A stretch of DNA of 64,000 nucleotides from an uncultured Pseudomonadota bacterium (GTDB lineage Bacteria; Pseudomonadota; Alphaproteobacteria; RF32; CAG-239), in NCBI GenBank assembly GCA_902763905.1, contig CACWUA010000001.1, positions 11-64,010 of the forward strand. The letters are read 5' to 3'. Made by a program: the position numbers and the translations under genes. The notes below the pieces were generated by a model. That model had not been told where the DNA came from, did not search any database, and saw nothing but the letters and a program-made list of their open reading frames with translations. Shown here piece after piece: positions 8,545-35,738 of the stretch (position 1 is its first letter; the number at the start of each line of letters is the position of its first letter).

Positions 8545-10326
8545 ATGCGTATTAAGATGAATATGTCTCGATGTATAGGAGGCATGGCTGTAATGGCTTT
8601 ATGGTTTGTTACGGCCGTATATCCGGCGAGGGCAGACGTCTGCTTTTTGCCGACGGGAATATGTGAGCAAGGAGTTACCACCAAAAACGACACCGCCCAG
8701 TGCACTTTGAATCTCAGTATTTACAAGAGTGCGCCGGTAGAGGGCAAAAAGTGTACAAAAGTCGAGGTTCCCGGGTGTCCGACGGTGTATGAATGTTTTG
8801 ATGACAGCTGCGATGCCCGCGGTTATAAGATCAAAGGCACCACCAGTCAGACTACCTACCCGAACAGTTATAATCCGAATACTTGGACCTGTAACAGTTG
8901 TTTGCAGGGTAAGACGTATTTTTGGAATTGTACTCCGAAACCTTGCTCTAGAGGTACCACCAAAGCCAAAGCATCTTGTGCGGCCGGTTATGAGTGGCAA
9001 GCTCAGAATGATTACGGAATGTCCGGTAATGATAAATGCGGAACTTGCGTTATGAGCAGCTGTCCGTCCGGAACAACTTCGGCTCCGGCCAGCGGATGTC
9101 AAATTTGCGAAGTTAGCAGCAGACTGGTAAATGGCACTAAGTGTTACAAATGCCACAGCATGTCAACTGATTATAAAACTCAAACGCAGATTGACTCTAC
9201 ATACAGAAGAAACTTAGCCGGTTCTTGCTATCACTTTAATTCCAAACAAGCAGCTGACAACACAGTATGTTACAATGTTACGGAAAGTGAATGCGGCACT
9301 GATCAATACAAAGGTAAAGCAACCGTCAACGGCCAGATGGCTTGTCAGTGCGTTAATTATGCATACACTTTTGTAACAACAGACGGCAAAGAAGAAGTCA
9401 ATCTTAATTTTCCGGCAACCGGCGGTACTAGCAGTGTAGGGATAAGTTCGGCAAGGAGTGCTACATATTATGGCGGTGGTTTCAGTGAAGGAATTTATTT
9501 TTCGTCTCGAAATACTGAAGGCAGCGGTTTAAGTGTTAGCACATCTGGTAACGTAACAACAATATCCGCTCCTAAAAATGAGGATCAAACCACGGATAAA
9601 ACTTATACCGTACAACTTATCCAACAGTATTCAAACAAAGTAATTACCATCCATGTAAAAGTGGCTCATGATGCTTGTCCGAATGATTATAAATTTGATG
9701 ATAAATGTGAGCAAACCGGTTGGAGAACAAAAACCGATAACAGAACATCTACCACTGGTAAAGCGTGCTATAAGTGCTATAATGATAATTGCTCGACAGG
9801 GTTTACCAAGGGAACAACTCCGACTAACGGCAACTATGATACCGAGACAACACCGTATGGCTCTAACTGCTATAAAGCAAAGCCGGATGATTGCCCGAGC
9901 GGATATACCAAGGGTTCAACTCCGCTGCCGACAAATCACTATAACACCAGCACCACGCCATTTGGTAGCAACTGCTATCAGCAGATATCGGATGATTGCA
10001 CATACGGTTCTCTGAATCCGGGGTACTGCCCGTATGGCCGGAGTTATGTAGGTAAATCAACTTTAGGCAATGATTGCTATGAATGCGATTCGCCGTCTTA
10101 TTGGTGGGATGACGATGACGACGATGACGACGACGATGACGATGATGATGGTTGCCCAGCCGGTGAAACAATGACTACACACGCAGGTTGCTGTAAATGG
10201 GGTGAATTATATCATACTAGTGGATATTATAGCTGCTGCGAGTGCGGTTCAGATTCCGATTGCCCTAGTACAGGCATCCATGGTACGTATATTGGATGTG
10301 TCGGTTGTGAATGTGAGGGCTATTAA
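8545..10326 (+). CDS. Secreted Cys-rich, Thr/Ser-rich repeat protein with a poly-Asp(14) tract (no recognisable family)
   Basis: An AGGAGA RBS lies 7 nt upstream. The N-terminus is signal-peptide-like (MAVMALWFVTAVYPARA|DV). The protein has more than 60 Cys and internal repeats (TTPYGSNCYKAKPDDCPSGYTKGSTP / TTPFGSNCYQQISDDCTYG). A D14 run is followed by a Cys-dense C-terminus. Confidence 0.6.
   Translation: MRIKMNMSRCIGGMAVMALWFVTAVYPARADVCFLPTGICEQGVTTKNDTAQCTLNLSIYKSAPVEGKKCTKVEVPGCPTVYECFDDSCDARGYKIKGTTSQTTYPNSYNPNTWTCNSCLQGKTYFWNCTPKPCSRGTTKAKASCAAGYEWQAQNDYGMSGNDKCGTCVMSSCPSGTTSAPASGCQICEVSSRLVNGTKCYKCHSMSTDYKTQTQIDSTYRRNLAGSCYHFNSKQAADNTVCYNVTESECGTDQYKGKATVNGQMACQCVNYAYTFVTTDGKEEVNLNFPATGGTSSVGISSARSATYYGGGFSEGIYFSSRNTEGSGLSVSTSGNVTTISAPKNEDQTTDKTYTVQLIQQYSNKVITIHVKVAHDACPNDYKFDDKCEQTGWRTKTDNRTSTTGKACYKCYNDNCSTGFTKGTTPTNGNYDTETTPYGSNCYKAKPDDCPSGYTKGSTPLPTNHYNTSTTPFGSNCYQQISDDCTYGSLNPGYCPYGRSYVGKSTLGNDCYECDSPSYWWDDDDDDDDDDDDDDGCPAGETMTTHAGCCKWGELYHTSGYYSCCECGSDSDCPSTGIHGTYIGCVGCECEGY
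10108..10149 (+). repeat. (GAY)14 trinucleotide microsatellite encoding poly-Asp
   Basis: Fourteen consecutive GAT/GAC codons lie inside the Cys-rich protein gene. Confidence 0.85.
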
Positions 10327-10380
10327 TCTCAATCAGACAGGTTAATATACCCAATCCATAATCAGGTACAAATATAAAAC

Positions 10381-10411
10381 AAAGGGAGGTGGTTTTATCC
10401 TCCCTTTTTTG
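10381..10411 (+). terminator. Rho-independent terminator (GGGAGG-loop-CCTCCC followed by T7)
   Basis: A 6-bp GC stem with a 9-nt loop followed by TTTTTTT, directly downstream of the Cys-rich protein gene. Confidence 0.7.
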
Positions 10412-10459
10412 TTGCATCTTGCGGATTCTTATGCTATACACCTCATCTGAGGTATAAAC

Positions 10460-11032
10460 ATGGCTGATGATGATAAATATAAAAGATGTCCGGAATATTG
10501 TCCGTTTTTGAAGGCTAACGGCACGTTTTGTGAATTGTTTCGCCGACCGCTGCAAACTGTTCAAGGAATATCACAAAAATGCGAAGAATGTAAAAATCCG
10601 GAACAGCGTAAAAGTTCTTATAAAGCACTCGGATTGTCTGTAGATGCTCGTGAACAGATATGGCAAAAAGCAATCTTGAAATATAACGAGATAGAACTGG
10701 GTAAAAAACGTGAAGAAGAAGGTGTGCGCAAAAAATTTGCGGCTCTTTTGGAAGATAAATACGGAGCACGTCCTCCGCTTGAAGGTAATGCGTTCTTAAA
10801 GAATTTGATAATCAATCTTTATATGGTGCTTGATGCCACCGAGCGCAGTATGATGGCGGCCATCTTAAACGGGCGCAACGGCGATAGATTGATTGAAGCC
10901 ATTGAACGTGCGCCCAAAGATGAAACTTTACTGCGTAATTTTCGCCGTGAACTTGATGGGCAATTTCAAGAGCATCAGCTGGAAATTAAACGAGAACAGC
11001 AGCAAAGAGACAATATAAATCAGCGTATTTAA
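10460..11032 (+). CDS. Hypothetical protein with an N-terminal Cys cluster (zinc-ribbon-like) and a charged coiled C-terminal half
   Basis: The ORF is 190 aa and a GAGGT Shine-Dalgarno lies 5 nt upstream. The N-terminus reads CPEYC..C..C-x2-C. No family was recognised. Confidence 0.45.
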   Translation: MADDDKYKRCPEYCPFLKANGTFCELFRRPLQTVQGISQKCEECKNPEQRKSSYKALGLSVDAREQIWQKAILKYNEIELGKKREEEGVRKKFAALLEDKYGARPPLEGNAFLKNLIINLYMVLDATERSMMAAILNGRNGDRLIEAIERAPKDETLLRNFRRELDGQFQEHQLEIKREQQQRDNINQRI

Positions 11033-11094
11033 AATATTTGTTGTATTTTTGTCAAATTGGTTTATAATCTATATAAATCAAAGGAGCAATGATA

Positions 11095-13023
11095 ATGACA
11101 GTTGAGACATTACTTACCAGAACCAAAGACAATTGTGTTATCGCATTTACCGTTTACTTTGGCAATGCGGCTGAAAAAACGCGCTTAAAACACGAGTGCG
11201 AAAACTTGTGCCGAAACCTGAATTATAATGAGTTTAACAGCAATATGCTGCGCTCGCACGGGATATCCTTTGATGCCGACAATACCAATTTTTTACACAA
11301 AGAAATTTCCGGATATCATTATCGCAAAGACCGTGCAAACTTTCGTAATGATATGCGTACCGATCCGCCGGCACAAACAAACACGTTGTCCCTATCCTAC
11401 CGGCTTACCGATGATGAATTTCCGGAGATGTTAAAGAATCTCGGTTTTAAAATCACACCGGTTGATAAGGCGTATAATGTGCGCTATAATCCTTCTCAAG
11501 GAAAGTTTGAGGCAGAAAATTTTGTAAGTACTACAGCAACTGTTTATTCAGATGACCGTAAAATAGAAATAGTCCGTAATCATTTTCGTTTTTCGAGTGC
11601 CGATTATCGCCGCTTAAACGAACTAAAAAATGATTTTTTTAATGCAAGGCAAAGCAATCCGCACTTAAGCATGTCATCTTATGTAAGCGCAATTCCGGAT
11701 TTACGCGACAGAGCCTTATTTGATTTTTATGCCCGCGAAAAAAGTAAAGTGGACAATCGCCGGACGACAATAGCTCACGAAATCAAGCATATTAAAAACG
11801 CTGTGTTACGAGACGGTTTAAACCTTAAGTCAAATAACAAACGCTTAAGCGTTGAAAATTATTACCGTATTGCCGTAGAAAACGAGCGTAGTGCGTATTT
11901 AGAAGAACTTGTGCAGAATATTAATGAGTATTTGCAAAAAGGTAATTATAACGATTTTTCGATGTTTTATGTTAATAATGCGGATTTTGTTGCTGAGCTG
12001 AAGCGCTTGCGTACACCGGCCGAACGTTTGGCATACGTGCGAAATTGGCCGCAATTGCTGGCAGTAAAAATGCGTGATTTTAACAGTAATTATTTGGATA
12101 AATACTTTAATCAGTTTAAGCAAATAACCGAATCGAGTATTGAAAATGCACCGCTCAATGCGCAGCCTGACAATGACGATGCAGAGTTCAAAAAATTGCG
12201 CTCGCTATTTTATAATTATCAGATTTATAATCCGGCGTCACATAGTATGGAATCCGTGAATTTGGCGGATTATCTTACTGCTGATTTGGAGATAAGTATC
12301 AATGATAGAGTGCGTCGTGAAATTATTGAACCGCAGCAAAATTGTTTGAATAGGCAGTTAAGCGATTTTGCCAGCGATAAAGCTGCCGGAAACATAAATC
12401 CGGAATTGATTGAGCCGGCAAAAGCACTAATGCGCGGAGGATTGCAAAGCAGCGAGTTTATAAACGAAGTGGATAATTTTCGTGTCTCTTCTTTGTATGA
12501 AGATGATGGTAATTCATTTCCGCAGCCGACAGCACCGTCGATTCCCAGCGATCATGCTCAATGGAGCAACAATTTGCAGCAATATTGGAGTAATACTGTC
12601 GGATATACCGAACTCGCCAAGAATAATGAAGAATATAAGTTTAAGATTAATGGTGCAACAGTACGGTACTCTTCGGATAAAGATGTTCAGGTTAGTCAAA
12701 ATGCAAATTACCAGTTGTATGTCAAGTTATTGAATGAACCGAGCAAACAGAATGCTCCGATTGAATTTTTGGAGACGCTGCGCAAAGAACAAAAACTGCT
12801 TCTTTATATTGCCTGTATCAATAACGGACGCAAACCTATCGGAGCAGTTCCGACAGATTTTTCGGATATTGAAAATTTGCAAGGCATAGCTCCGGCAGAA
12901 ATAAATAAATTCCGCCATCGGATGCAGCAACAATCAGGTGCGGCTCAAAATGCCAATGCGCAAAGCACTCAAACTCGGGCTCAAAAGATGTGTATGCAAA
13001 AGACTATGCAAAATACGCGCTAA
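11095..13023 (+). CDS. Hypothetical 642-aa protein with an HExxH..E (gluzincin-like) motif and no signal peptide
   Basis: TIAHEIKHIKN contains an HExxH motif, and ENERSAYLEE ~35 aa downstream is a candidate third zinc ligand. The C-terminus is Gln/Asn/basic-rich. The ATG at 11095 was chosen because it lies 9 nt after an AGGAG Shine-Dalgarno, whereas the ATG at 11089 is too close to it. Confidence 0.5.
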   Translation: MTVETLLTRTKDNCVIAFTVYFGNAAEKTRLKHECENLCRNLNYNEFNSNMLRSHGISFDADNTNFLHKEISGYHYRKDRANFRNDMRTDPPAQTNTLSLSYRLTDDEFPEMLKNLGFKITPVDKAYNVRYNPSQGKFEAENFVSTTATVYSDDRKIEIVRNHFRFSSADYRRLNELKNDFFNARQSNPHLSMSSYVSAIPDLRDRALFDFYAREKSKVDNRRTTIAHEIKHIKNAVLRDGLNLKSNNKRLSVENYYRIAVENERSAYLEELVQNINEYLQKGNYNDFSMFYVNNADFVAELKRLRTPAERLAYVRNWPQLLAVKMRDFNSNYLDKYFNQFKQITESSIENAPLNAQPDNDDAEFKKLRSLFYNYQIYNPASHSMESVNLADYLTADLEISINDRVRREIIEPQQNCLNRQLSDFASDKAAGNINPELIEPAKALMRGGLQSSEFINEVDNFRVSSLYEDDGNSFPQPTAPSIPSDHAQWSNNLQQYWSNTVGYTELAKNNEEYKFKINGATVRYSSDKDVQVSQNANYQLYVKLLNEPSKQNAPIEFLETLRKEQKLLLYIACINNGRKPIGAVPTDFSDIENLQGIAPAEINKFRHRMQQQSGAAQNANAQSTQTRAQKMCMQKTMQNTR

Positions 13024-23464: not shown

Positions 23465-24403
23465 ATGGGCAATGATAATCAATATACATTTTTGAGAGTT
23501 TGTCGAACATTCTTAAAAGCAATTTTGCACACTTTTGTGCAATGGAGAATGTTTATCGTTTATGCCGCGTCGCTGACGTTTTTGAATGCTCTGTTTGGTC
23601 GTTGGACTTATTCCTGCAATACGGATATAAAATATTGGTGCTCTTTTGCTCCGGAGAACAGATATATTTTTATAATATATTTGTTATTTTACTGCGGAGC
23701 GGTGTTTTATCTCTTTGCTTCTTTTATAACAGACTTTAAGAACAGTGTATTTAAAGATACTCTTTTTAAGCCTCGTGATATGTTATGTTGTGTTTACTAT
23801 AAAATGCGTATGACATTGTTGCTGTTTATTTTTACTGTCAGCTTAATTCTGGCACTGAGCGGAGCTATATATATAATTCAGAAGCCGGCAGATCCGGATT
23901 TCATAATAGAATTTTGCTGGTTCCTTCTGACCTTTTCTTTGTTGCTCTGGCCGCTATTTATGATACGCTGTTGTGCATGTTTTGCATATTATCTGCAAAC
24001 GGGTAGGTTAGAAATAAAAAAAGTATTTAGCAACACTTCAGGTCGAACACATGTCAGCATAGTTTGGTTTATGCTGCTCATGATGACTCTGCTGATATTG
24101 AATATGCGCTTTATGTTTGATGCAATTTATGTCGAACAGCATTACAATTATTTATTTACAGCTGTTGCAGTAGAATTTCTCGGCAGTGTGTTTAAGTTTA
24201 TATGCTTGGCATTGTATCTTTTGCTCTTTTATTCTCAATATGTGCAAATGGAAAAGAATTCGGCAGAAAAAAATATGGTCTTGGCAAACGATGACAATGC
24301 ATCGGGCAGCCTTGCCATAACACCAACATTATACAATGCATTGGGTAAAAAGAAAAAACATAAGATAAAGTCAAAAGCTGTAAGCCGGAAGAAAAGGAAC
24401 TGA
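23465..24403 (+). CDS. Hypothetical polytopic membrane protein
   Basis: The ORF is 312 aa with ~7 predicted hydrophobic helices and a Lys-rich C-terminus. Its ATG lies 1 nt after the dnaE stop. Confidence 0.45.
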   Translation: MGNDNQYTFLRVCRTFLKAILHTFVQWRMFIVYAASLTFLNALFGRWTYSCNTDIKYWCSFAPENRYIFIIYLLFYCGAVFYLFASFITDFKNSVFKDTLFKPRDMLCCVYYKMRMTLLLFIFTVSLILALSGAIYIIQKPADPDFIIEFCWFLLTFSLLLWPLFMIRCCACFAYYLQTGRLEIKKVFSNTSGRTHVSIVWFMLLMMTLLILNMRFMFDAIYVEQHYNYLFTAVAVEFLGSVFKFICLALYLLLFYSQYVQMEKNSAEKNMVLANDDNASGSLAITPTLYNALGKKKKHKIKSKAVSRKKRN

Positions 24404-28055: not shown

Positions 28056-28283
28056 ATGAAAATAAAGTCTTGCTGTATGGATAAACAAACCATACAAGAA
28101 ATCGGTCATCAACTATGGCAAATGCGCCAAGAACGCAGAATGTATCTGCATACGGTATCTTTCCAAACCCGCATTCCCGAGAGAGTAATAGAGGGTATGG
28201 AAATCGGTAAGTTTATTAAATATTCCGCTTTTCGGTGCCTGATGGAGTTCTATGGCAAAAAAATGCGGATTGTTTTTGAATAA
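28056..28283 (+). CDS. Small XRE-family helix-turn-helix protein
   Basis: The ORF is 75 aa and a GAGGAG RBS lies 7 nt upstream. IGHQLWQMRQERRMYLHTVSFQTRIPERVIEGMEIGK fits a Cro/C1-type HTH. It is convergent with virD4. Confidence 0.5.
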   Translation: MKIKSCCMDKQTIQEIGHQLWQMRQERRMYLHTVSFQTRIPERVIEGMEIGKFIKYSAFRCLMEFYGKKMRIVFE

Positions 28284-28285
28284 AA

Positions 28286-28315
28286 GAAAAGCCTCGCTTA
28301 GCGGCGGGGCTTTTA
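28286..28315. terminator. Bidirectional intrinsic terminator between the HTH gene (+) and virD4 (-)
   Basis: AAAAGCCTCGC-ttagcg-GCGGGGCTTTT: an 8-bp stem flanked by an A-run and a T-run. Confidence 0.6.
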
Positions 28316-28333: not shown

Positions 28334-30547
28334 TTAGGCTTGTGGAGCGTCCATCTCGAAACCTTCGCTGTCATCCTCCTCGGCGTTGTATTCAATACCC
28401 AATTTGGCCAGCATATCGTCATTGATATCTTCACGCTGTGCCACCACCCAATCCGGCACGTTGGCACACGGCGGGAGTTTAGCCAGTTTAGTCATCTTCT
28501 TATCCAAATACCAACGCGGCGAATCGGCAATAATCGGCCGGTCAATATGACTTTGCATCAGTACCACTTGCTTTAACATCGGCAAACTCAAAAGTTGAGT
28601 CGAGCTGATTACCGGAATACCTTGCAGCTGGTAGTTAACGTTTTTCGCCAGCGGGTTAAAGTCTTTACCAAGTGAACCTTCCGTTCGCGAGAACGAAGAA
28701 ATACGAACAGTCTTGTTTCCTATCATCTTAGAGAAACGCTGTGCCGTAACCTCGTTGTTCTGCGAAAGAATAACTTTGCAGGCGGTAGTAGAAATCACCG
28801 TTTCCAAGTCATCTTTTCCGTATTTACCGGAAATTTGCCCCAAGTCTTGTCCGATTAGGAGGTACGACACTTTTTGACCACGACCTACGGCCGGTCCGTC
28901 AATAATGGCCTTCATTTTCGGCATTTGCGGAAACTCGTCGAGCACAAACAGGGCAGGGAACGGTCCCATTTTGCCGTCGGTACGGTTGACGTGATTCGGC
29001 GGATTGGAAATCAGATAAGAGCTCATCAATTCAATAAAGGTCGAACTGATAACGCCCAAAGCGCGCGCATCAACTTGGTTAACCGACAAATACACAGAAA
29101 TAGGCTTCCATTCACCGGTAATCGGGTCTTTCATACCGCGCAAATCCTTAAATTGCAAATCGGAGAAACTGGTACGCGCCTTAACCGCTTGGTTCTTAAA
29201 TACGTTAATACCGGCAAATGCCGTAGAAAGAATGGAACCGCGCTCCTTATCCGGCGTGTTACTCAAAGTACTCAATTCCGTAATACAGCGCTGAGCATAA
29301 CCGTAGTTGCGAGCCTCTTTGATAGCTTCTTCCAACATATCGTGCGTCGGGTCAGCCATTGCCGCCATTTGATCGCCTTCATCCAAACGACGTTGAATTT
29401 CTTGTGCCGCATTAATTTGCGCCTCAGTAATCCATTCCATAATCATGGCAATGCAGGCTTCACGCCCCATCCACCTTGACGGTAGCAGATTCCACGTACC
29501 GATTGGCAGATAGTTTTCCATGGTTAAAGTGCCGTTTTTTAAGTTTTGAATGGCACGCGGAGCTCCCGGATCACGCATATCCTGATAATATCCTTCAAGC
29601 ACTTCTTTGTCTTTTTCATCAAGTTTGCCCTCATAGATGCGACCGATAAAATAGTCGTTGGCGCGGGCGCGATCACACTTTGAAACCACAAATTGAATAA
29701 ATCCGGTTAAGGCTGCACGGCCGGTTTGTGACCAGTGCGGGTCGGCACCGCCTTTCGGATCTTCTACCAAAATATTGCACATGGAATCCACATACATATC
29801 GCGATCCGGCCCTTGTTCCGGAATACAATTCGGCGACAACGGATTCCAGCTTGGATAATAAATACCTTCACTCGGGTTATCTTCCGCACCCCAGTTAATG
29901 ATAAATACCGGCCCCACCTTGGCACGTGCACCGGAAGTTTTGTAACAAAGCTCCGGTTTCGGGTCATTAATCACCAAACTCAAGCCCTCCGAGTGGAAAA
30001 TCGTCGGCATCACCACACCCACGGTTTTACCGGTACCAGGAGGCGCACAGCACAGGGTTGCCAATGTTTCTTTCAAAAGCAAAAACTTGCCGTCAAATTT
30101 TCCCACCACTTGGCAGAAACCGTCAAATCCCAATAATGGCATCTTTTTTATATCGCGCAAATCGGCAATTTTGGCTTGACCTTGATAGTTGACTTGGAAT
30201 TTGTACGGACTGAAAATGGCACTGATGATTATACCGAGTGGAATTGTTATAAAAGGCAGAAGAGGAATCCATAAACTTAAAGAAAATGGTCCGCGGTGAT
30301 TCCATAATTGTTTCCACCATCTTCCATACATTGTAAACAAATGATTAGGATCATGCATAATAATTGTTAAAAACTTCTGTACCACGGTTGTTGACGACTT
30401 AGATAACCCATGACCTACAACATAAGAAAGAGGTAGACTGAAGATAAATAAGATTATGGTGAGACCTATGCAAATAAACAATGTTATCAACATCCATCGA
30501 ACGGCTTTGTCATATTCTTTCCATTCTTCACCACGATCGTTGGCCAT
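28334..30547 (-). CDS. virD4: Type IV secretion coupling protein VirD4/TraG family ATPase
   Basis: Two N-terminal TM helices, a Walker A (CCAPPGTGKTVGVVMPT), the TraG/VirD4 core and an acidic C-terminal tail (EEDDSEGFEMDAPQA). Confidence 0.85.
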   Translation of the reverse strand: MANDRGEEWKEYDKAVRWMLITLFICIGLTIILFIFSLPLSYVVGHGLSKSSTTVVQKFLTIIMHDPNHLFTMYGRWWKQLWNHRGPFSLSLWIPLLPFITIPLGIIISAIFSPYKFQVNYQGQAKIADLRDIKKMPLLGFDGFCQVVGKFDGKFLLLKETLATLCCAPPGTGKTVGVVMPTIFHSEGLSLVINDPKPELCYKTSGARAKVGPVFIINWGAEDNPSEGIYYPSWNPLSPNCIPEQGPDRDMYVDSMCNILVEDPKGGADPHWSQTGRAALTGFIQFVVSKCDRARANDYFIGRIYEGKLDEKDKEVLEGYYQDMRDPGAPRAIQNLKNGTLTMENYLPIGTWNLLPSRWMGREACIAMIMEWITEAQINAAQEIQRRLDEGDQMAAMADPTHDMLEEAIKEARNYGYAQRCITELSTLSNTPDKERGSILSTAFAGINVFKNQAVKARTSFSDLQFKDLRGMKDPITGEWKPISVYLSVNQVDARALGVISSTFIELMSSYLISNPPNHVNRTDGKMGPFPALFVLDEFPQMPKMKAIIDGPAVGRGQKVSYLLIGQDLGQISGKYGKDDLETVISTTACKVILSQNNEVTAQRFSKMIGNKTVRISSFSRTEGSLGKDFNPLAKNVNYQLQGIPVISSTQLLSLPMLKQVVLMQSHIDRPIIADSPRWYLDKKMTKLAKLPPCANVPDWVVAQREDINDDMLAKLGIEYNAEEDDSEGFEMDAPQA

Positions 30548-30563
30548 TTTGCTTTACTCCACT

Positions 30564-32081
30564 TTATTTTATGTTTTTCAAAACGTTGCGTATATTATCC
30601 AGTTGTTTTTTAGTTACTTTTTCATCAGCCTCGCTGAGAATCTTAGAAAACAGCTTAATTTCCTTCGGTGCACCGCGATTTATGCGTGTAACCTCAATTC
30701 CCATTTCGTTCCATATATCAAACATATCATCAGCATTAATAATATTTGCCATTTGAATAATCACACATGAAGTGATTTTTTGCTCAAATTCGTTTTCATC
30801 GAGTGCGGTCTCAATCAGCTTTTTCACATTATTAAGCTTACAAACCGGTGAAACACGATGACTGCTTTCAGAGAACCACAACGGCTCTTCTCCGTTAAAC
30901 ATCTCCTCATCGGCCAACCAATCACCGCTTTCTTTATCGACTAAACATAAGTAGATATCATTTTGTGAAACACCGACAAAGTCAATAAGTGTACCTTTAA
31001 CCGAAATATTGGTAATAACATCATAATTCTTTTGCAACAATGTTTCATAAACCGGACTGCGTGGCGTATCATTTGTTTTGTTATCCGAATTTCTGGAGCG
31101 CCGTTCACTGCTTCTCTCTTCGTCATCGGTATCACGCTGACGTGAACTGCGCCTAGATGTTTCATCAGATTTACGCGAAGATTTGCGCGAAACTTTATCT
31201 CTGTTGTCGCGTCGATTCGCACGCGGTGATTCAAAGTTTTCTTCATCTTCATCATTATCTTCGTCGTCATCATCATCAAAGTCGTATTTCGGCTTGGAGT
31301 GTTTACTCGGCTGGTTGATTTTCTCTTCATTATCATCCGAATGTTTTTGGGATTTTCTCTCGTTTGTCGGTTTTTTCTTTCCTATATCGGCTTTTTCAAA
31401 GGAGTCGATATCCAAATCGAAATCATCATCATCGTCATCGTCAAATTTGAATAATGCGTGGTCAATTGTGGCGGCCACATCAGTCTTTTTCTTAGCCGTA
31501 GCCGGAGCCGGCGACTGAGCTACCATCGGAGCCGCATAAGACGAACCGGCAACTGCTGCCGCCATCGGTGCGGAAGTAGCCGAATTGCCGTAATCGGAAA
31601 TAGGCACTCGCAAAGTATTAATTCCCGTCGGTCGAATCAACTTATATGATTTACGTTTAACCACTCCATAGCGGTTATTGCCTGTAGATACCGACGAAAG
31701 AGGCGACTTGTCGCTATATTTTTTATAGAGTGTATACGGAAGCTTTATTATATTCCATATAACTTCTTCCCAAGCCACCATGCATAGTGTCCACCAACCG
31801 GTAATCAGCATCGGGAAAAATACAATCATTAAAAGAATAAATGCCCACTCTTTAGGCGCGCGCGGAATCCAACCCGCTTTCCATGTTGTAGCGAATTGAT
31901 GCCAATGATCAGGCCAGAAAATATCAAAATGCCAATTACACAGCATAATTACGCGAATACCCTCTGTGAAGACAATCCCCCACAGGCATCCGACAATTAG
32001 AATTCTAAGAAATACCAATATGGATTTCAACTGCGCACTCCGTAAATTTGCCAATACACTCACTATATTAATAGCACTCAA
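30564..32081 (-). CDS. Hypothetical two-TM membrane protein with poly-Asp/Glu and Arg-Ser-rich disordered tracts (DotM-like position and topology)
   Basis: The ORF is 505 aa and its stop lies 16 nt upstream of the virD4 start. It has two N-terminal hydrophobic helices, low-complexity D7/D5EDNDEDEE and SRKSSRKSDETSRRSSRQRD tracts and a ~150-aa C-terminal globular region. Confidence 0.55.
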   Translation of the reverse strand: MSAINIVSVLANLRSAQLKSILVFLRILIVGCLWGIVFTEGIRVIMLCNWHFDIFWPDHWHQFATTWKAGWIPRAPKEWAFILLMIVFFPMLITGWWTLCMVAWEEVIWNIIKLPYTLYKKYSDKSPLSSVSTGNNRYGVVKRKSYKLIRPTGINTLRVPISDYGNSATSAPMAAAVAGSSYAAPMVAQSPAPATAKKKTDVAATIDHALFKFDDDDDDDFDLDIDSFEKADIGKKKPTNERKSQKHSDDNEEKINQPSKHSKPKYDFDDDDDEDNDEDEENFESPRANRRDNRDKVSRKSSRKSDETSRRSSRQRDTDDEERSSERRSRNSDNKTNDTPRSPVYETLLQKNYDVITNISVKGTLIDFVGVSQNDIYLCLVDKESGDWLADEEMFNGEEPLWFSESSHRVSPVCKLNNVKKLIETALDENEFEQKITSCVIIQMANIINADDMFDIWNEMGIEVTRINRGAPKEIKLFSKILSEADEKVTKKQLDNIRNVLKNIK

Positions 32082-32108
32082 ATATTAAAAAAGTGAATAT
32101 ATTTTTCG

Positions 32109-32585
32109 TTAATTGTTCGATTCTTGTATTTTCTCAATAATTTCTTTGCGAAAATCAGTAACATTTTCGGATTTGGTTTTTTTCTTTTCTTGATCAAGCC
32201 TCTCCTTAATGAACTGATCCAACGATTTTTTTTCTTCTATTTTTAAGTTTTTGATATTAACATCGGGAGCCACATAGCCGTCAAACCCGCTGTTAAAGAT
32301 TTTGTTGAGCGGCACCGTCAGTAATTTCATATACTTAAAGTGATATAATTTATACCAACCGTAAAAACAAAGCGGCACCACTGATAAAACCATTGCAATG
32401 ACAATTAAATCCTTGCCCTGCAAGACATTTCCTCTGTTCCAAAAGTTGGACAAACTGCGATAGAACACCGGCGGCGTGGTATGATAAACCAATAGTATAA
32501 TGAGCTGTACCAAGCCGGCCAGAATGGCCATCCACAAAACACAGGCAACTAACACGCAAATAAAATGAAAAAACTTTTTAATCAT
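32109..32585 (-). CDS. Hypothetical small membrane protein (2 TM) with a charged C-terminus
   Basis: The ORF is 158 aa with two hydrophobic helices and sits in the same operon, 27 nt upstream of the next gene. Confidence 0.45.
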   Translation of the reverse strand: MIKKFFHFICVLVACVLWMAILAGLVQLIILLVYHTTPPVFYRSLSNFWNRGNVLQGKDLIVIAMVLSVVPLCFYGWYKLYHFKYMKLLTVPLNKIFNSGFDGYVAPDVNIKNLKIEEKKSLDQFIKERLDQEKKKTKSENVTDFRKEIIEKIQESNN

Positions 32586-32652
32586 CAGCGGCCTTCTCTT
32601 GTACCCTGCGGTCTGATTTGCTGCATCTCATGCTTTTTATTTATGCGGTTTT

Positions 32653-34695
32653 TCATCCTATCGAGATTAATTTTGCGTTTTTTGTTATTCTCTTTGCTTG
32701 CGGCGTTTTGTTCTTTTTTCCTTCAATATCTCTATCCCATTGCTGTTCTTTTTTATGTCCGGAATTTTCCTCTCGTGCCGCTTCATCCGGTCCCATTTTG
32801 GTGGATTTCTTCGGTTTATTGTTACCTTGCACTTGCGCTCGCTCTCCTTCGCTGGGTGTGCGGTAATGATTGTAGAACTTATCAAACTCGACTTCCTGCG
32901 CTTTCATCTGCTGTTCCAGAACTTTTTTCTTGGCCGGATCTTGTTCGGTATGGTATGCACATTGCAAATCTCTCAGAGTCTTACCCTCACAACAGATATC
33001 TGCATAATATCCACCCAATTCTTTTGCCGCCGAATTGGCAATCTTAAGTTTTTCTTTAGGCGGGATTTCGGCATCCGGAGCAAGATGATGCTCAACTCGA
33101 TAATCATTTTCTTTTTGCTTAAATATGACTGAGGTTGTTTCCATCATATCAAACATTTTAATCAATGTTGCTTTCTGAACATAAGCTGCGGCCTCAGCAT
33201 TGCCGTCCAGCTCTTTATCCGGATTTTTTCGAACATATTCATTGGTCGCAAGATGCGCACACAATTTGACCAAATCATTCTTTTTGCCGTCTTTATGGAT
33301 AGGAAAAACAGTTTCCAATTTTTGGGGATCCTTTTCCAATTCTGTAATTTTTTGCATAAAATAACCCTTATCGGAGGCAAAAATCTCATTCATGGTTTCG
33401 GCAAAATTTTGATGTATTTTCGGATCAAATACCACAAACGGCACACCTTTTTGCGGAGCGCCGATAACAGGCTGCCATTTGTCCGGATTTTTGCCGATAT
33501 TGTTTTGAATGCAGCGCAGCATCGGTTGTAATCTTTGCGGATTTTTCATCAAGTCTCCGAATTTATCGACAAAGTCGGCGCGAGTAGCATCAGCCAGTCG
33601 GCTCATTTGCTGCGCAAAAGCGTTAGCTTCCGGCGAAAGCTCAACCGCAGCGGCATTTTGAGGGCTATTACCACTGTTGCCGGCTTTACCAGCAGCTTTG
33701 GCCGCAGCAGAAGTTCTAACCGGAGCTTGTCCTTCTCCGCATAAATAATCCAAACCGGTATCAAGTGTCTTAAATGCTTTTTGCATAACATAGTTAATTA
33801 AACCGAGAAACCAAACGTTATAAAGGTATTGAATTAAATCTTGTTCTTTTACCGGATCAAAATTAAAATCACCTTTTTTACCGCGTTCGGAATCGCGTTT
33901 AGAATCTTCGAGTTGAGCTGTATTTTCCGCTTTTTCATCGTCATTCGGCTTGTTTTCCGGCGGAGTTTCAGCTGAGATATTGAGTTTGTTGCCATCAGCC
34001 GAGAAATTTAATGTATCTGCCTCATTTTCTGGCAATCCTCCCATTCTTATCGGTTCCGATTCGGATTTTTGTTCTTCTGTGCTCTGATTCAATCCTGACT
34101 TTTTTAAGGATTCATTCAGCGCATTTTGCAAAATAAAAGATTTTTTTGCCAAATCCTTATATTTAAGGCTACGTGGTTTGGAGGCATCAACTGCATTAGC
34201 CGCTTTACTTAAAACTTCATCATAATCCAACTTTGCCAATGTTTCGGAAATATCTATCATCACATTGCTGTTTTTATCAAGCAGTTCCAGAGTGTTTTTG
34301 TCTTTAATGCGTTTTTGCTTAAATTCGGCGGCGTACGTATTAAGCGCAACAATTGTCATAATATTTTTGCCGCTTTGCGGATTCTTTTCCGTTAAAAATT
34401 GTACCATTTGCTCGTTGCTTATTTTTCCATCTTCATTAAGCTCTTGCATGGCTTTTAGGGCATTTTTGATACCTGTCAGATTCTGGAATCCGAGTTTTTT
34501 GGTTTCCTCTTTACTCCCGTTCGGAATAGGAGCAGGAAAGATCGCGGCTTTCAGAGCATCGGGCAAATGACCGATACCATATCTAAGCATACCGGCTTTT
34601 ATCAGCTCCATGTCCATATTTACTTCTTTATTCAATTCTGCGCAGAAGAGTTTAAAATCATCAGCTTCATTTGCATTTTTTATATCTTCAGCCAT
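32653..34695 (-). CDS. Hypothetical 680-aa soluble protein, acidic and Lys-rich, no recognised domain
   Basis: Long ORF on the same strand within the virD4 operon. It has no TM segment and no known motifs; codon usage is consistent with its neighbours. Confidence 0.55.
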   Translation of the reverse strand: MAEDIKNANEADDFKLFCAELNKEVNMDMELIKAGMLRYGIGHLPDALKAAIFPAPIPNGSKEETKKLGFQNLTGIKNALKAMQELNEDGKISNEQMVQFLTEKNPQSGKNIMTIVALNTYAAEFKQKRIKDKNTLELLDKNSNVMIDISETLAKLDYDEVLSKAANAVDASKPRSLKYKDLAKKSFILQNALNESLKKSGLNQSTEEQKSESEPIRMGGLPENEADTLNFSADGNKLNISAETPPENKPNDDEKAENTAQLEDSKRDSERGKKGDFNFDPVKEQDLIQYLYNVWFLGLINYVMQKAFKTLDTGLDYLCGEGQAPVRTSAAAKAAGKAGNSGNSPQNAAAVELSPEANAFAQQMSRLADATRADFVDKFGDLMKNPQRLQPMLRCIQNNIGKNPDKWQPVIGAPQKGVPFVVFDPKIHQNFAETMNEIFASDKGYFMQKITELEKDPQKLETVFPIHKDGKKNDLVKLCAHLATNEYVRKNPDKELDGNAEAAAYVQKATLIKMFDMMETTSVIFKQKENDYRVEHHLAPDAEIPPKEKLKIANSAAKELGGYYADICCEGKTLRDLQCAYHTEQDPAKKKVLEQQMKAQEVEFDKFYNHYRTPSEGERAQVQGNNKPKKSTKMGPDEAAREENSGHKKEQQWDRDIEGKKNKTPQAKRITKNAKLISIG

Positions 34696-34775
34696 TAAAG
34701 TATCTCCTTCAAAGCAACTTGATTTTTATTAATTGTATCATAAAAAAATGTTTTTGTCCACAACTATTTCTTTGC

Positions 34776-35738
34776 CTAAACTTTTACTTTTTTCATAAAT
34801 TTACCGATTTCAATATTGACGCGAATGCCATCTTTGGGAGTAACCTTTACCAATCCGAAAAAACGCGGTTTTATTTTGGCAAATTCAATCGGGGCAAAAA
34901 TTGCCGGATTGGTGGTTAGAGCCTTAAATGCGCCGTCAACATCTTTTTGTGCCACACGGAAATAATTGCTGACAAGGCGTTCGGCATCTATCGGAAAATT
35001 TTTTTTCTTTACGGCTTCAACCAAACGTTTTTGACGTTCTTTGCGTTCTAAATATTCTTCATAAAGCATTCGTTTTATGTGTTTTTCCTGATATTTAAGC
35101 AATTTAGCCTGATAAGTCAGTTCACAGCTTTCCATGTCAATCAAGATCTCGACATACGAGATTACGGCTAATTGCAAGTCCTGATCGCGTAAAGTCTCGG
35201 CAAAATTCAAAAATTCTTCATCGGTGGCAGAAACGTTAAATCCACCGACACTGTCCGGATAAATCTCACGCAATACATTCCAGCCGGCAACTAAGTCAGT
35301 CGCCAATAAATGTCCTATACTAGGTTTATAGTTCGGGTACAAAAAATCAATTTCAAACTCCCAGTTTAATGAAGGTATACTCTTGGCCGCACAAATCTTA
35401 TCAATAGAACCGCGATAATTTATATAAGCCTGCGCTAATTCGGATTCTTCACTTCTCAATTCTGGTTTCTTTTCTTCATCTTCAATAACTGTGCGAGCCT
35501 GCTCAAAAGTTTCAGCCAGTTCTTTTTCAAATGCATCTGAAGCGGCATCGTTTTCCGTCTGTCCTTGCTGACTCAAAGCCGGTTCTTCCGGTTTTTCTGC
35601 CGGTGCGGTTACAGCGGTTTCATCATCTTCCTCTAAATCATCAACTTTAGAGTTAATAAAGCTGTTTAAAAGCTTTTCAAAATCATCACCTTGGCTAAAT
35701 TCATTTTCATCACTCATAAAATCAGTACTCCTTTGCAA
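34776..35738 (-). CDS. Hypothetical 320-aa protein with a strongly acidic N-terminal third
   Basis: First gene of the minus-strand operon, divergent from rluD. No recognised domain. Confidence 0.5.
   Translation of the reverse strand: MQRSTDFMSDENEFSQGDDFEKLLNSFINSKVDDLEEDDETAVTAPAEKPEEPALSQQGQTENDAASDAFEKELAETFEQARTVIEDEEKKPELRSEESELAQAYINYRGSIDKICAAKSIPSLNWEFEIDFLYPNYKPSIGHLLATDLVAGWNVLREIYPDSVGGFNVSATDEEFLNFAETLRDQDLQLAVISYVEILIDMESCELTYQAKLLKYQEKHIKRMLYEEYLERKERQKRLVEAVKKKNFPIDAERLVSNYFRVAQKDVDGAFKALTTNPAIFAPIEFAKIKPRFFGLVKVTPKDGIRVNIEIGKFMKKVKV

Follow-up and report, generated by a model that had tools for sequence, protein, structure and literature searches.

Type IV coupling proteins (T4CPs) have normally been studied on plasmids or within virB, tra or dot clusters. 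The gene treated here is a chromosomal virD4, the last of five genes in an operon at positions 28334-35738 of a 64,000-nucleotide stretch of DNA from an uncultured alphaproteobacterium (the whole stretch is hereafter called the window), where it is accompanied by four partner genes designated p505, p158, p680 and p320. We consider it moderately probable that this operon supplies the coupling-protein module, with lineage-specific partners, of a VirB-type type IV secretion system (T4SS) whose genes are dispersed over the chromosome. Megaplasmid VirB/VirD4 systems of the MPF-T (mating pair formation T) type, known from Erythrobacter aureus, Sphingosinicella sp. and Microvirga sp., have family and domain order in common with the window VirD4. 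Their genes are, however, clustered on conjugative-type replicons, whereas the window virD4 is chromosomal, has four unrelated genes ahead of it and is without virB genes in the window.

The coupling complex of the Legionella Dot/Icm system (DotL, DotM, DotN, DotY, DotZ, IcmS, IcmW, LvgA) resembles the operon in that a T4CP has dedicated partners, one of them membrane-anchored and encoded adjacent to it. It is a precedent for a T4CP with additional membrane and cytoplasmic partners (PMC12857230). The window VirD4 is, however, of the VirB/D4 type and not of the DotL type, and its main partner, p505, has a nuclease-fold domain while DotM is without one. The earlier note on this DNA had suggested that the partners be compared with DotM, DotN, IcmS, IcmW and LvgA, and no sequence or fold similarity to these or to any other Dot/Icm protein was found. 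By analogy with DotL, the conserved C-terminal tail of the window VirD4 could be an adaptor-binding site. The rvh T4SS of Rickettsiales is chromosomal and vertically inherited, its genes are scattered in islands and some of its components are duplicated (PMC11077975). Two virB8 copies in one of the related loci, L126, recall these duplicated components. In Rickettsiales rvhD4 remains linked to rvhB8-B11, whereas the window virD4 is separate, with its own partner genes, and the window showed no genes of rvh type.

The operon is composed of the following open reading frames (ORFs), with coordinates in the window:

28334-30547, minus strand: virD4, 737 aa, final gene of the five-gene operon
30564-32081, minus strand: p505, 505-aa ORF directly upstream of virD4
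32109-32585, minus strand: p158, 158 aa
32653-34695, minus strand: p680, 680 aa
34776-35738, minus strand: p320, 320-aa ORF, first gene of the operon

Counted from the longest-ORF starts, the intergenic gaps are 16, 27, 67 and 80 nt; the layout described in the earlier note, five minus-strand ORFs with gaps of 16-80 nt and virD4 in the last position, was thus reproduced gene by gene. Homologues and gene callers place the likely start of p505 at 32030, giving 488 aa (30564-32030) and widening the 27-nt gap to p158 to 78 nt, and that of p320 at 35717, giving 313 aa (34776-35717). No terminator-like site was detected by a consensus terminator scan in any intergenic gap within the operon.

On sequence grounds the product of 28334-30547 is a bona fide VirD4/TraG-type coupling protein, and the assignment is robust. 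The protein matched the Pfam families PF02534 (T4SS-DNA_transf; 7e-57, 193.7 bits, cut-off 20.1), PF12696 (TraG-D_C; 76.3 bits, 3e-21) and PF10412 (TrwB_AAD_bind; 63.1 bits, 3e-17). Its architecture comprises two N-terminal transmembrane (TM) segments at residues 20-38 and 94-112, an all-alpha domain, a nucleotide-binding domain and an acidic C-terminal tail. Walker A (GTGKT) and Walker B (LFVLDEF) motifs are both present, with PPGTGKT and FVLDEFP invariant in alignment A1, and the tail is strongly conserved (VPDW..AQREDINDDMLAKLG..Y; invariant columns of the same alignment). The domains, the TM segments and the Walker motifs all bear out the earlier identification of a VirD4 coupling ATPase. 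Among NCBIfam models only generic VirD4/TraG ones matched, all with scores far under the equivalog cut-offs, which marks the protein as divergent within the family.

With one genome scanned per species, approximately 405 loci with a VirD4 relative were obtained, of which 80 were fetched. The source of each of the 80 was an uncultured bacterium of the gut or rumen, in nearly every case with the label Alphaproteobacteria or Proteobacteria; one of them, a Candidatus Scatocola, is placed by NCBI in Rhodospirillales. We take the operon-bearing clade to be the order RF32 of GTDB. VirD4 identity to the window ranged from 73 to 100% across these species genomes, with the 100% identical protein found in a goat-rumen metagenome-assembled genome, "Alphaproteobacteria bacterium RGIG3536". 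Co-conservation of the five-gene block in related genomes, which the earlier note had proposed to check, was found throughout: the order p320-p680-p158-p505-virD4 was kept in every related locus with enough flank (approximately 150 loci), usually beside the divergently transcribed pair rluD-rpoH. The exception was one subclade without p320 at the front of the operon, in which SecY, CysS or GyrB genes precede the block. The degree of conservation differed strongly between the products, as seen from their identity to the window in the group with VirD4 at about 75%:

VirD4: 74-76%
RpoH: approximately 73%
RluD: 60-66%
p320: 40-50%
p505: 35-45%
p158: 22-32%
p680: almost none

Since VirD4 is as conserved as RpoH and the gene order is fixed in a housekeeping context, virD4 is a core gene under strong constraint and not a relic. 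The operon as a whole is core and vertically inherited, with an unusually constrained ATPase, and it is not a mobile element. Metagenome loci formed a stepwise series:

VirD4 70% identical or more: all four partners
VirD4 58-64% identical: p320, a longer p158-like protein and p505
VirD4 54-57% identical: only p505 beside virD4

p680 was present wherever VirD4 is at least 70% identical, and the adjacency of p505 and virD4 persisted down to 54% VirD4 identity. According to this series the p505-VirD4 pair is the invariant core of the operon.

All four partners had been called unrecognisable in the earlier note, which is too strong in view of p505 and p158. p505 consists of a tryptophan-rich hairpin of two TM segments, a disordered charged linker of approximately 200 aa and a cytoplasmic domain with PD-(D/E)xK/NERD fold in the last approximately 165 aa. 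Conserved motifs are the basic VVKRKSYK.IRP and the acidic FKFDDDDDDFDLDIDSFEK. The C-terminal domain agrees with the alpha-beta-beta-beta-alpha-beta core fold of restriction-endonuclease-like proteins. While the window protein scored 20.2 bits against Pfam NERD, under the cut-off of 22.1, the model matched 53 of 66 p505 orthologues at E<=0.1 (best 6.5e-6). In strand 2 one aspartate is nearly invariant. From the NERD and PD-(D/E)xK superfamily p505 differs in the two-TM anchor fused via the disordered linker, and in an invariant acidic cluster (D..E.GDWLADEE.FNGE.PLWFSE..HR) in place of the canonical triad, which is not evident. p505 is a new family of T4CP-associated proteins. p158 is a small inner-membrane protein with a two-TM hairpin (residues 8-26 and 60-78) and a short charged tail. 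The p158 family aligned with the N-terminal family of p505 over 102 columns with an hhalign probability of 98.5% (E 2e-15), and judged from this profile comparison p158 is a paralogue of the p505 N-terminal hairpin. Pfam searches with 23 p158 orthologues were inconsistent (PgaD 9e-4 and PrgI 0.16, in one member each), and homology to PgaD or VirB3 is not claimed.

p320 has an acidic disordered N-terminus with a conserved DDFEKLL..FI motif, followed by an all-alpha domain and a conserved basic C-terminus; its helical bundle had no informative structural neighbour. p680 is soluble, rich in lysine, glutamate and asparagine, fast-evolving and without predicted TM segments. Its 73 orthologues form one BLAST-connected family with lengths from 427 to 1069 aa, in which only a core of approximately 40 residues is conserved (window residues approximately 272-319, ..DLIQYLYNVWFLGLINYVMQKAF..), and it had no match in Pfam, NCBIfam or PADLOC. 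Net charge over the last 25 residues was +2.7 for p680 and +4.2 for p320, compared with a background of +1.2. None of the partners matched any model of a T4SS, Dot/Icm or defence protein in Pfam, NCBIfam or PADLOC. Against PADLOC-DB the five proteins and the neighbouring helix-turn-helix (HTH) gene gave no match at E<=0.1 except for a Cas3 fragment at chance level (E 0.051), and searches of VirD4, p505, p320 and p158 against PDB sequences, both single-sequence and profile, returned only low-complexity noise. No match was found for p505 and p320 on plasmids, or for p505 on viral contigs.

Among annotated replicons, the T4CPs nearest to the window VirD4 share 33-35% identity with it across more than 90% of the length. 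They are located on plasmids, where their genes end canonical virB2-B11/virD4 clusters of alphaproteobacterial megaplasmids. A profile search over 1.84 billion representative proteins gave a graded set of closer relatives, and the contexts of nine of these were inspected. All nine were chromosomal and housekeeping in nature, with no virB within 10 kb. In a neighbour-joining tree, which is rough, distance-based and without support values, the orphan VirD4s formed one group beside the megaplasmid T4CPs. In the window's branch the position directly upstream of virD4 is held by the p505 homologue; in a deeper branch it is held by a gene for a pentapeptide-repeat protein (five of the nine contexts). 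These pentapeptide-repeat genes lie at L090:9006-9998, L091:8772-10001, L093:8672-9997, L094:7216-8376 and L096:8789-9979 and encode proteins of 330-441 aa, next to VirD4s of 28-40% identity; the four tails that were read are charged and mostly basic. A short motif ("K.IRP" / "KYDF") seemingly common to these tails and the p505 linker received no support from a hidden Markov model search and was rejected. Other neighbours of virD4 in single relatives were a prepilin peptidase (Peptidase_A24) directly after virD4 at L094:10630-11334, and small proteins adjoining virD4 at L088:13456-13803 and L087:9503-9958, whose N-termini resemble those of type IV pilins (G-x-S-M-x-E, then a hydrophobic helix). 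A literature search returned nothing relevant on RF32 with T4SSs, on orphan T4CPs or on pentapeptide-repeat proteins with VirD4.

That a VirB-type T4SS is encoded elsewhere in the genome is supported by VirD4 itself, which retains every feature of a T4CP and groups by the megaplasmid T4CPs of complete virB2-B11/D4 clusters. It is further favoured by the virB genes of L126 and by a gene pair following virD4 in many relatives. The VirD4 of L126 is 60% identical to that of the window and belongs to a p158-like/p505/virD4 operon as in the window. At L126:836-4059 (minus strand), 6-9 kb upstream of the operon, are genes for VirB9 (Pfam CagX 1.9e-12, with a C-terminal SPOR domain), two VirB8 copies (3e-21 and 2e-10) and a small VirB7-like ORF; housekeeping genes, for an esterase and a DEAD-box helicase, lie between these and the operon. 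A scattered chromosomal virB set is accordingly present in at least one sister lineage.

The gene pair was found in 50-58 related loci, including part of the group with at least 72% identity, and consists of two co-oriented genes directly after virD4 (for example L126:12304-13791, L088:12265-13334 and L052:12237-13275). The first encodes a protein of 200-360 aa with no family match and an invariant H..P..GG..N..H..H pattern. An assignment to the HNH nucleases was not retained: the motif had been recognised by eye only, and Pfam and PDB profiles gave nothing. The second encodes a protein of 144-180 aa, with a SUKH (SMI1_KNR4) match in 17 of 28 members (best 1.6e-5). The SUKH family is known chiefly for immunity proteins that belong to polymorphic toxins, and the two genes look like a toxin-immunity pair, although no recognised toxin domain was detected in the first protein. 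They are similar in gene arrangement to the bacteria-killing X-T4SS of Xanthomonadales, in which toxins recognised by VirD4 are encoded with adjacent immunity genes and the location is likewise chromosomal. From the presence of such a pair after virD4 in many relatives, the T4SS may deliver toxins to neighbouring cells, which is plausible for at least part of the clade.

A mechanism consistent with these observations would be as follows. VirD4 would form a hexameric inner-membrane ATPase serving a T4SS whose channel genes are encoded elsewhere in the genome. p505 would be its obligate lineage-specific partner, anchored beside it by the two-TM hairpin, with the nuclease-fold domain held in the cytoplasm on the long, flexible and highly charged tether, where it probably docks or processes substrates. 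p158 would supply a second copy of the p505-type membrane hairpin, while p320 and p680 might act as adaptors, chaperones or substrates. Inheritance of the T4SS would be vertical throughout a large clade of Alphaproteobacteria, uncultured and native to gut and rumen. That the partners associate physically with VirD4 we infer, with co-conservation and tight gene spacing as the support, and we likewise infer the presence of virB genes in the genome of the window and the nature of the substrates.

Several observations weigh against a dispersed T4SS. VirB2-B11 proteins from the nearest plasmid clusters had no tblastn match in the window, and no virB gene was found within 10 kb of the operon in any of 84 species-representative loci or in 79 of 80 metagenome loci (163 of 164 in total). 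L126, the locus that deviates, shows only VirB7-like, VirB8 and VirB9 genes and is without VirB4, VirB6, VirB10 and VirB11. It also represents a different lineage, with a GC content of 54% versus approximately 41%. Neither the window nor its closest relatives have the gene pair after virD4. None of the four partners matched any known T4SS or coupling-complex protein, and we know of no precedent for a nuclease-fold partner among T4CP accessories. Inspected by eye in the alignment and the secondary structure, p505 shows no evident canonical (D/E)xK triad: strand 3 ends V-D-K-E, and the residue two positions ahead of the lysine is not acidic. The dispersed T4SS is nevertheless the most economical reading of the operon.

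The earlier note had offered two possibilities for the operon, a lineage-specific coupling complex and a set of co-expressed substrates. The former is sustained in part, by the co-conservation of the unit, which is not due to chance, the two inner-membrane partners and the p505-VirD4 pairing, while no partner resembles a Dot/Icm adaptor. The latter is possible for the soluble p320 and p680 only, as p505 and p158 are inner-membrane proteins. With two inner-membrane partners and a universal p505-VirD4 pairing, a coupling complex fits better than a substrate set.

Among the other explanations, the one best preserved is that of a VirB-independent inner-membrane machine, in which a VirD4 hexamer with p505 and the p158 hairpin would work as an autonomous DNA translocase and the nuclease domain would cut or hold the pumped DNA; we consider this unlikely. 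Possible roles of such a machine are donation or release of DNA, or processing of incoming DNA. In a broader form, VirD4, p505 and p158 would be a self-contained machine for translocation and processing of nucleic acids without a VirB channel, with a domesticated coupling protein in a new clade-wide cellular role, and this we regard as unlikely too. Loose analogues are HerA-NurA and the "transjugation" ATPase TdtA of Thermus with its nucleases. The explanation survives because no virB was seen in approximately 160 loci of relatives and because the nuclease-fold partner is unprecedented among T4CP accessories. With the deeper relatives included, virB was absent from approximately 165 contexts and from nine more in housekeeping surroundings. 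The universal and tightly spaced p505-VirD4 pairing and the support for the PD-(D/E)xK/NERD fold point in the same direction, as does a review noting that VirB4/VirD4-like ATPases can act with non-canonical partners (PMC12857230). On the other hand, L126 has virB8 and virB9 near an operon of the same type, the SUKH pair in many relatives suggests export of proteins to other cells, the canonical nuclease triad of p505 is not evident, and the upstream partner in deeper relatives is a pentapeptide-repeat protein and not a nuclease-fold one. No known T4CP acts without a T4SS or another envelope-spanning channel.

It is also conceivable, but quite improbable in our estimate, that p680 and perhaps p320 are cargo, i.e., T4SS effectors co-transcribed with VirD4, which would leave p505 and p158 as the only accessory subunits. 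Very fast evolution of p680 with its wide range of lengths, while VirD4 stays at least 73% identical, would suit such a role. VirB/D4 substrates carry positively charged C-terminal signals, and the positive C-terminal charge of p680 and p320 runs in this direction, as do the basic tails of the pentapeptide-repeat partners in deeper relatives (four read). However, the charge excess of p680 is modest, the C-terminus of p320 is a conserved folded element and not a free tail, and no toxin or enzyme domain was detected in either protein. Furthermore, both genes hold fixed positions in the operon throughout the clade, as is more usual for machinery. A defence system against phages or plasmids, made up of a membrane ATPase and a nuclease, is very improbable, since the five proteins had no PADLOC model match, the operon is syntenic and near-universal in the clade beside rluD-rpoH instead of in a variable island, p505 and p320 had no match on plasmids, nor p505 on viral contigs, and the ATPase is a complete T4CP, transmembrane domain included.

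Two further features are located directly downstream of the operon:

28287-28314: hairpin, from sequence and folding, flanked by the convergent stop codons of virD4 and of the 75-aa HTH gene
28056-28283, plus strand: HTH gene, 75 aa, convergent to virD4, with a weak HTH_25 match

Folding energies of the hairpin are -18.1 kcal/mol (plus strand, z -3.5) and -12.6 kcal/mol (minus strand, z -2.5), and A/U runs flank it on either side. It is similar to a bidirectional intrinsic terminator and marks the 3' end of the operon, but was missing from the listing of the consensus terminator scan. The convergent HTH gene and the bidirectional terminator that the earlier note had placed downstream are in this way both recovered. 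The HTH gene was seen only in the closest relatives (L001, L002, L005, L008, L010) and is thus outside the conserved unit. The rest of the window is housekeeping by Pfam (mnmE, gidA, parAB, dnaE, polA, rluD, rpoH, a resistance-nodulation-division efflux pump and ATP synthase) and is located near the replication origin. It contained no T4SS, relaxase or mobile-element genes; tblastn and Pfam agreed here with the earlier statement that virB, relaxase and mobile-element genes are lacking in the 64 kb. No Rfam family reached the gathering score anywhere in the window (1-64000). Three consecutive ORFs without Pfam match are found at 8545-13023 (plus strand). The first encodes a secreted, cysteine-rich and repetitive protein of 593 aa with a run of 13 aspartates, the second a 190-aa protein and the third a soluble protein of 644 aa.

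Some genes recur near the operon in parts of the clade. A DUF6476 protein of 91-99 aa with a single TM segment is encoded between rluD and the operon, directly upstream of the p320 homologue, at L050:5343-5627 and in 33 other loci. It was not accepted as an operon member, as it occurs in distant relatives only, is absent from the window and is probably unrelated. A polytopic membrane protein of 312 aa with approximately five TM segments and of unrecognised family (u312) is encoded at 23465-24403 (plus strand) of the window, and in 18 relatives its gene is convergent to virD4 within 0.1-4 kb. In another subclade a different five-TM protein of 240-250 aa (dn253; L003:12220-12981) is encoded directly after virD4. 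Homology between u312 and dn253 is doubtful (hhalign probability 27%), and each is near virD4 only in some subclades.

In these bacteria virD4 belongs to the core genes of the chromosome and is inherited vertically, and its set of partners is fixed and found in no described system. If the operon belongs to a dispersed T4SS, common uncultured gut bacteria carry an unstudied secretion system, possibly used against their neighbours, and its receptor complex would be unlike both known models, namely VirD4 alone and DotL with DotM, DotN and IcmSW. If instead VirD4 acts independently of VirB, it would be the first demonstrated case of a coupling protein working without a T4SS.

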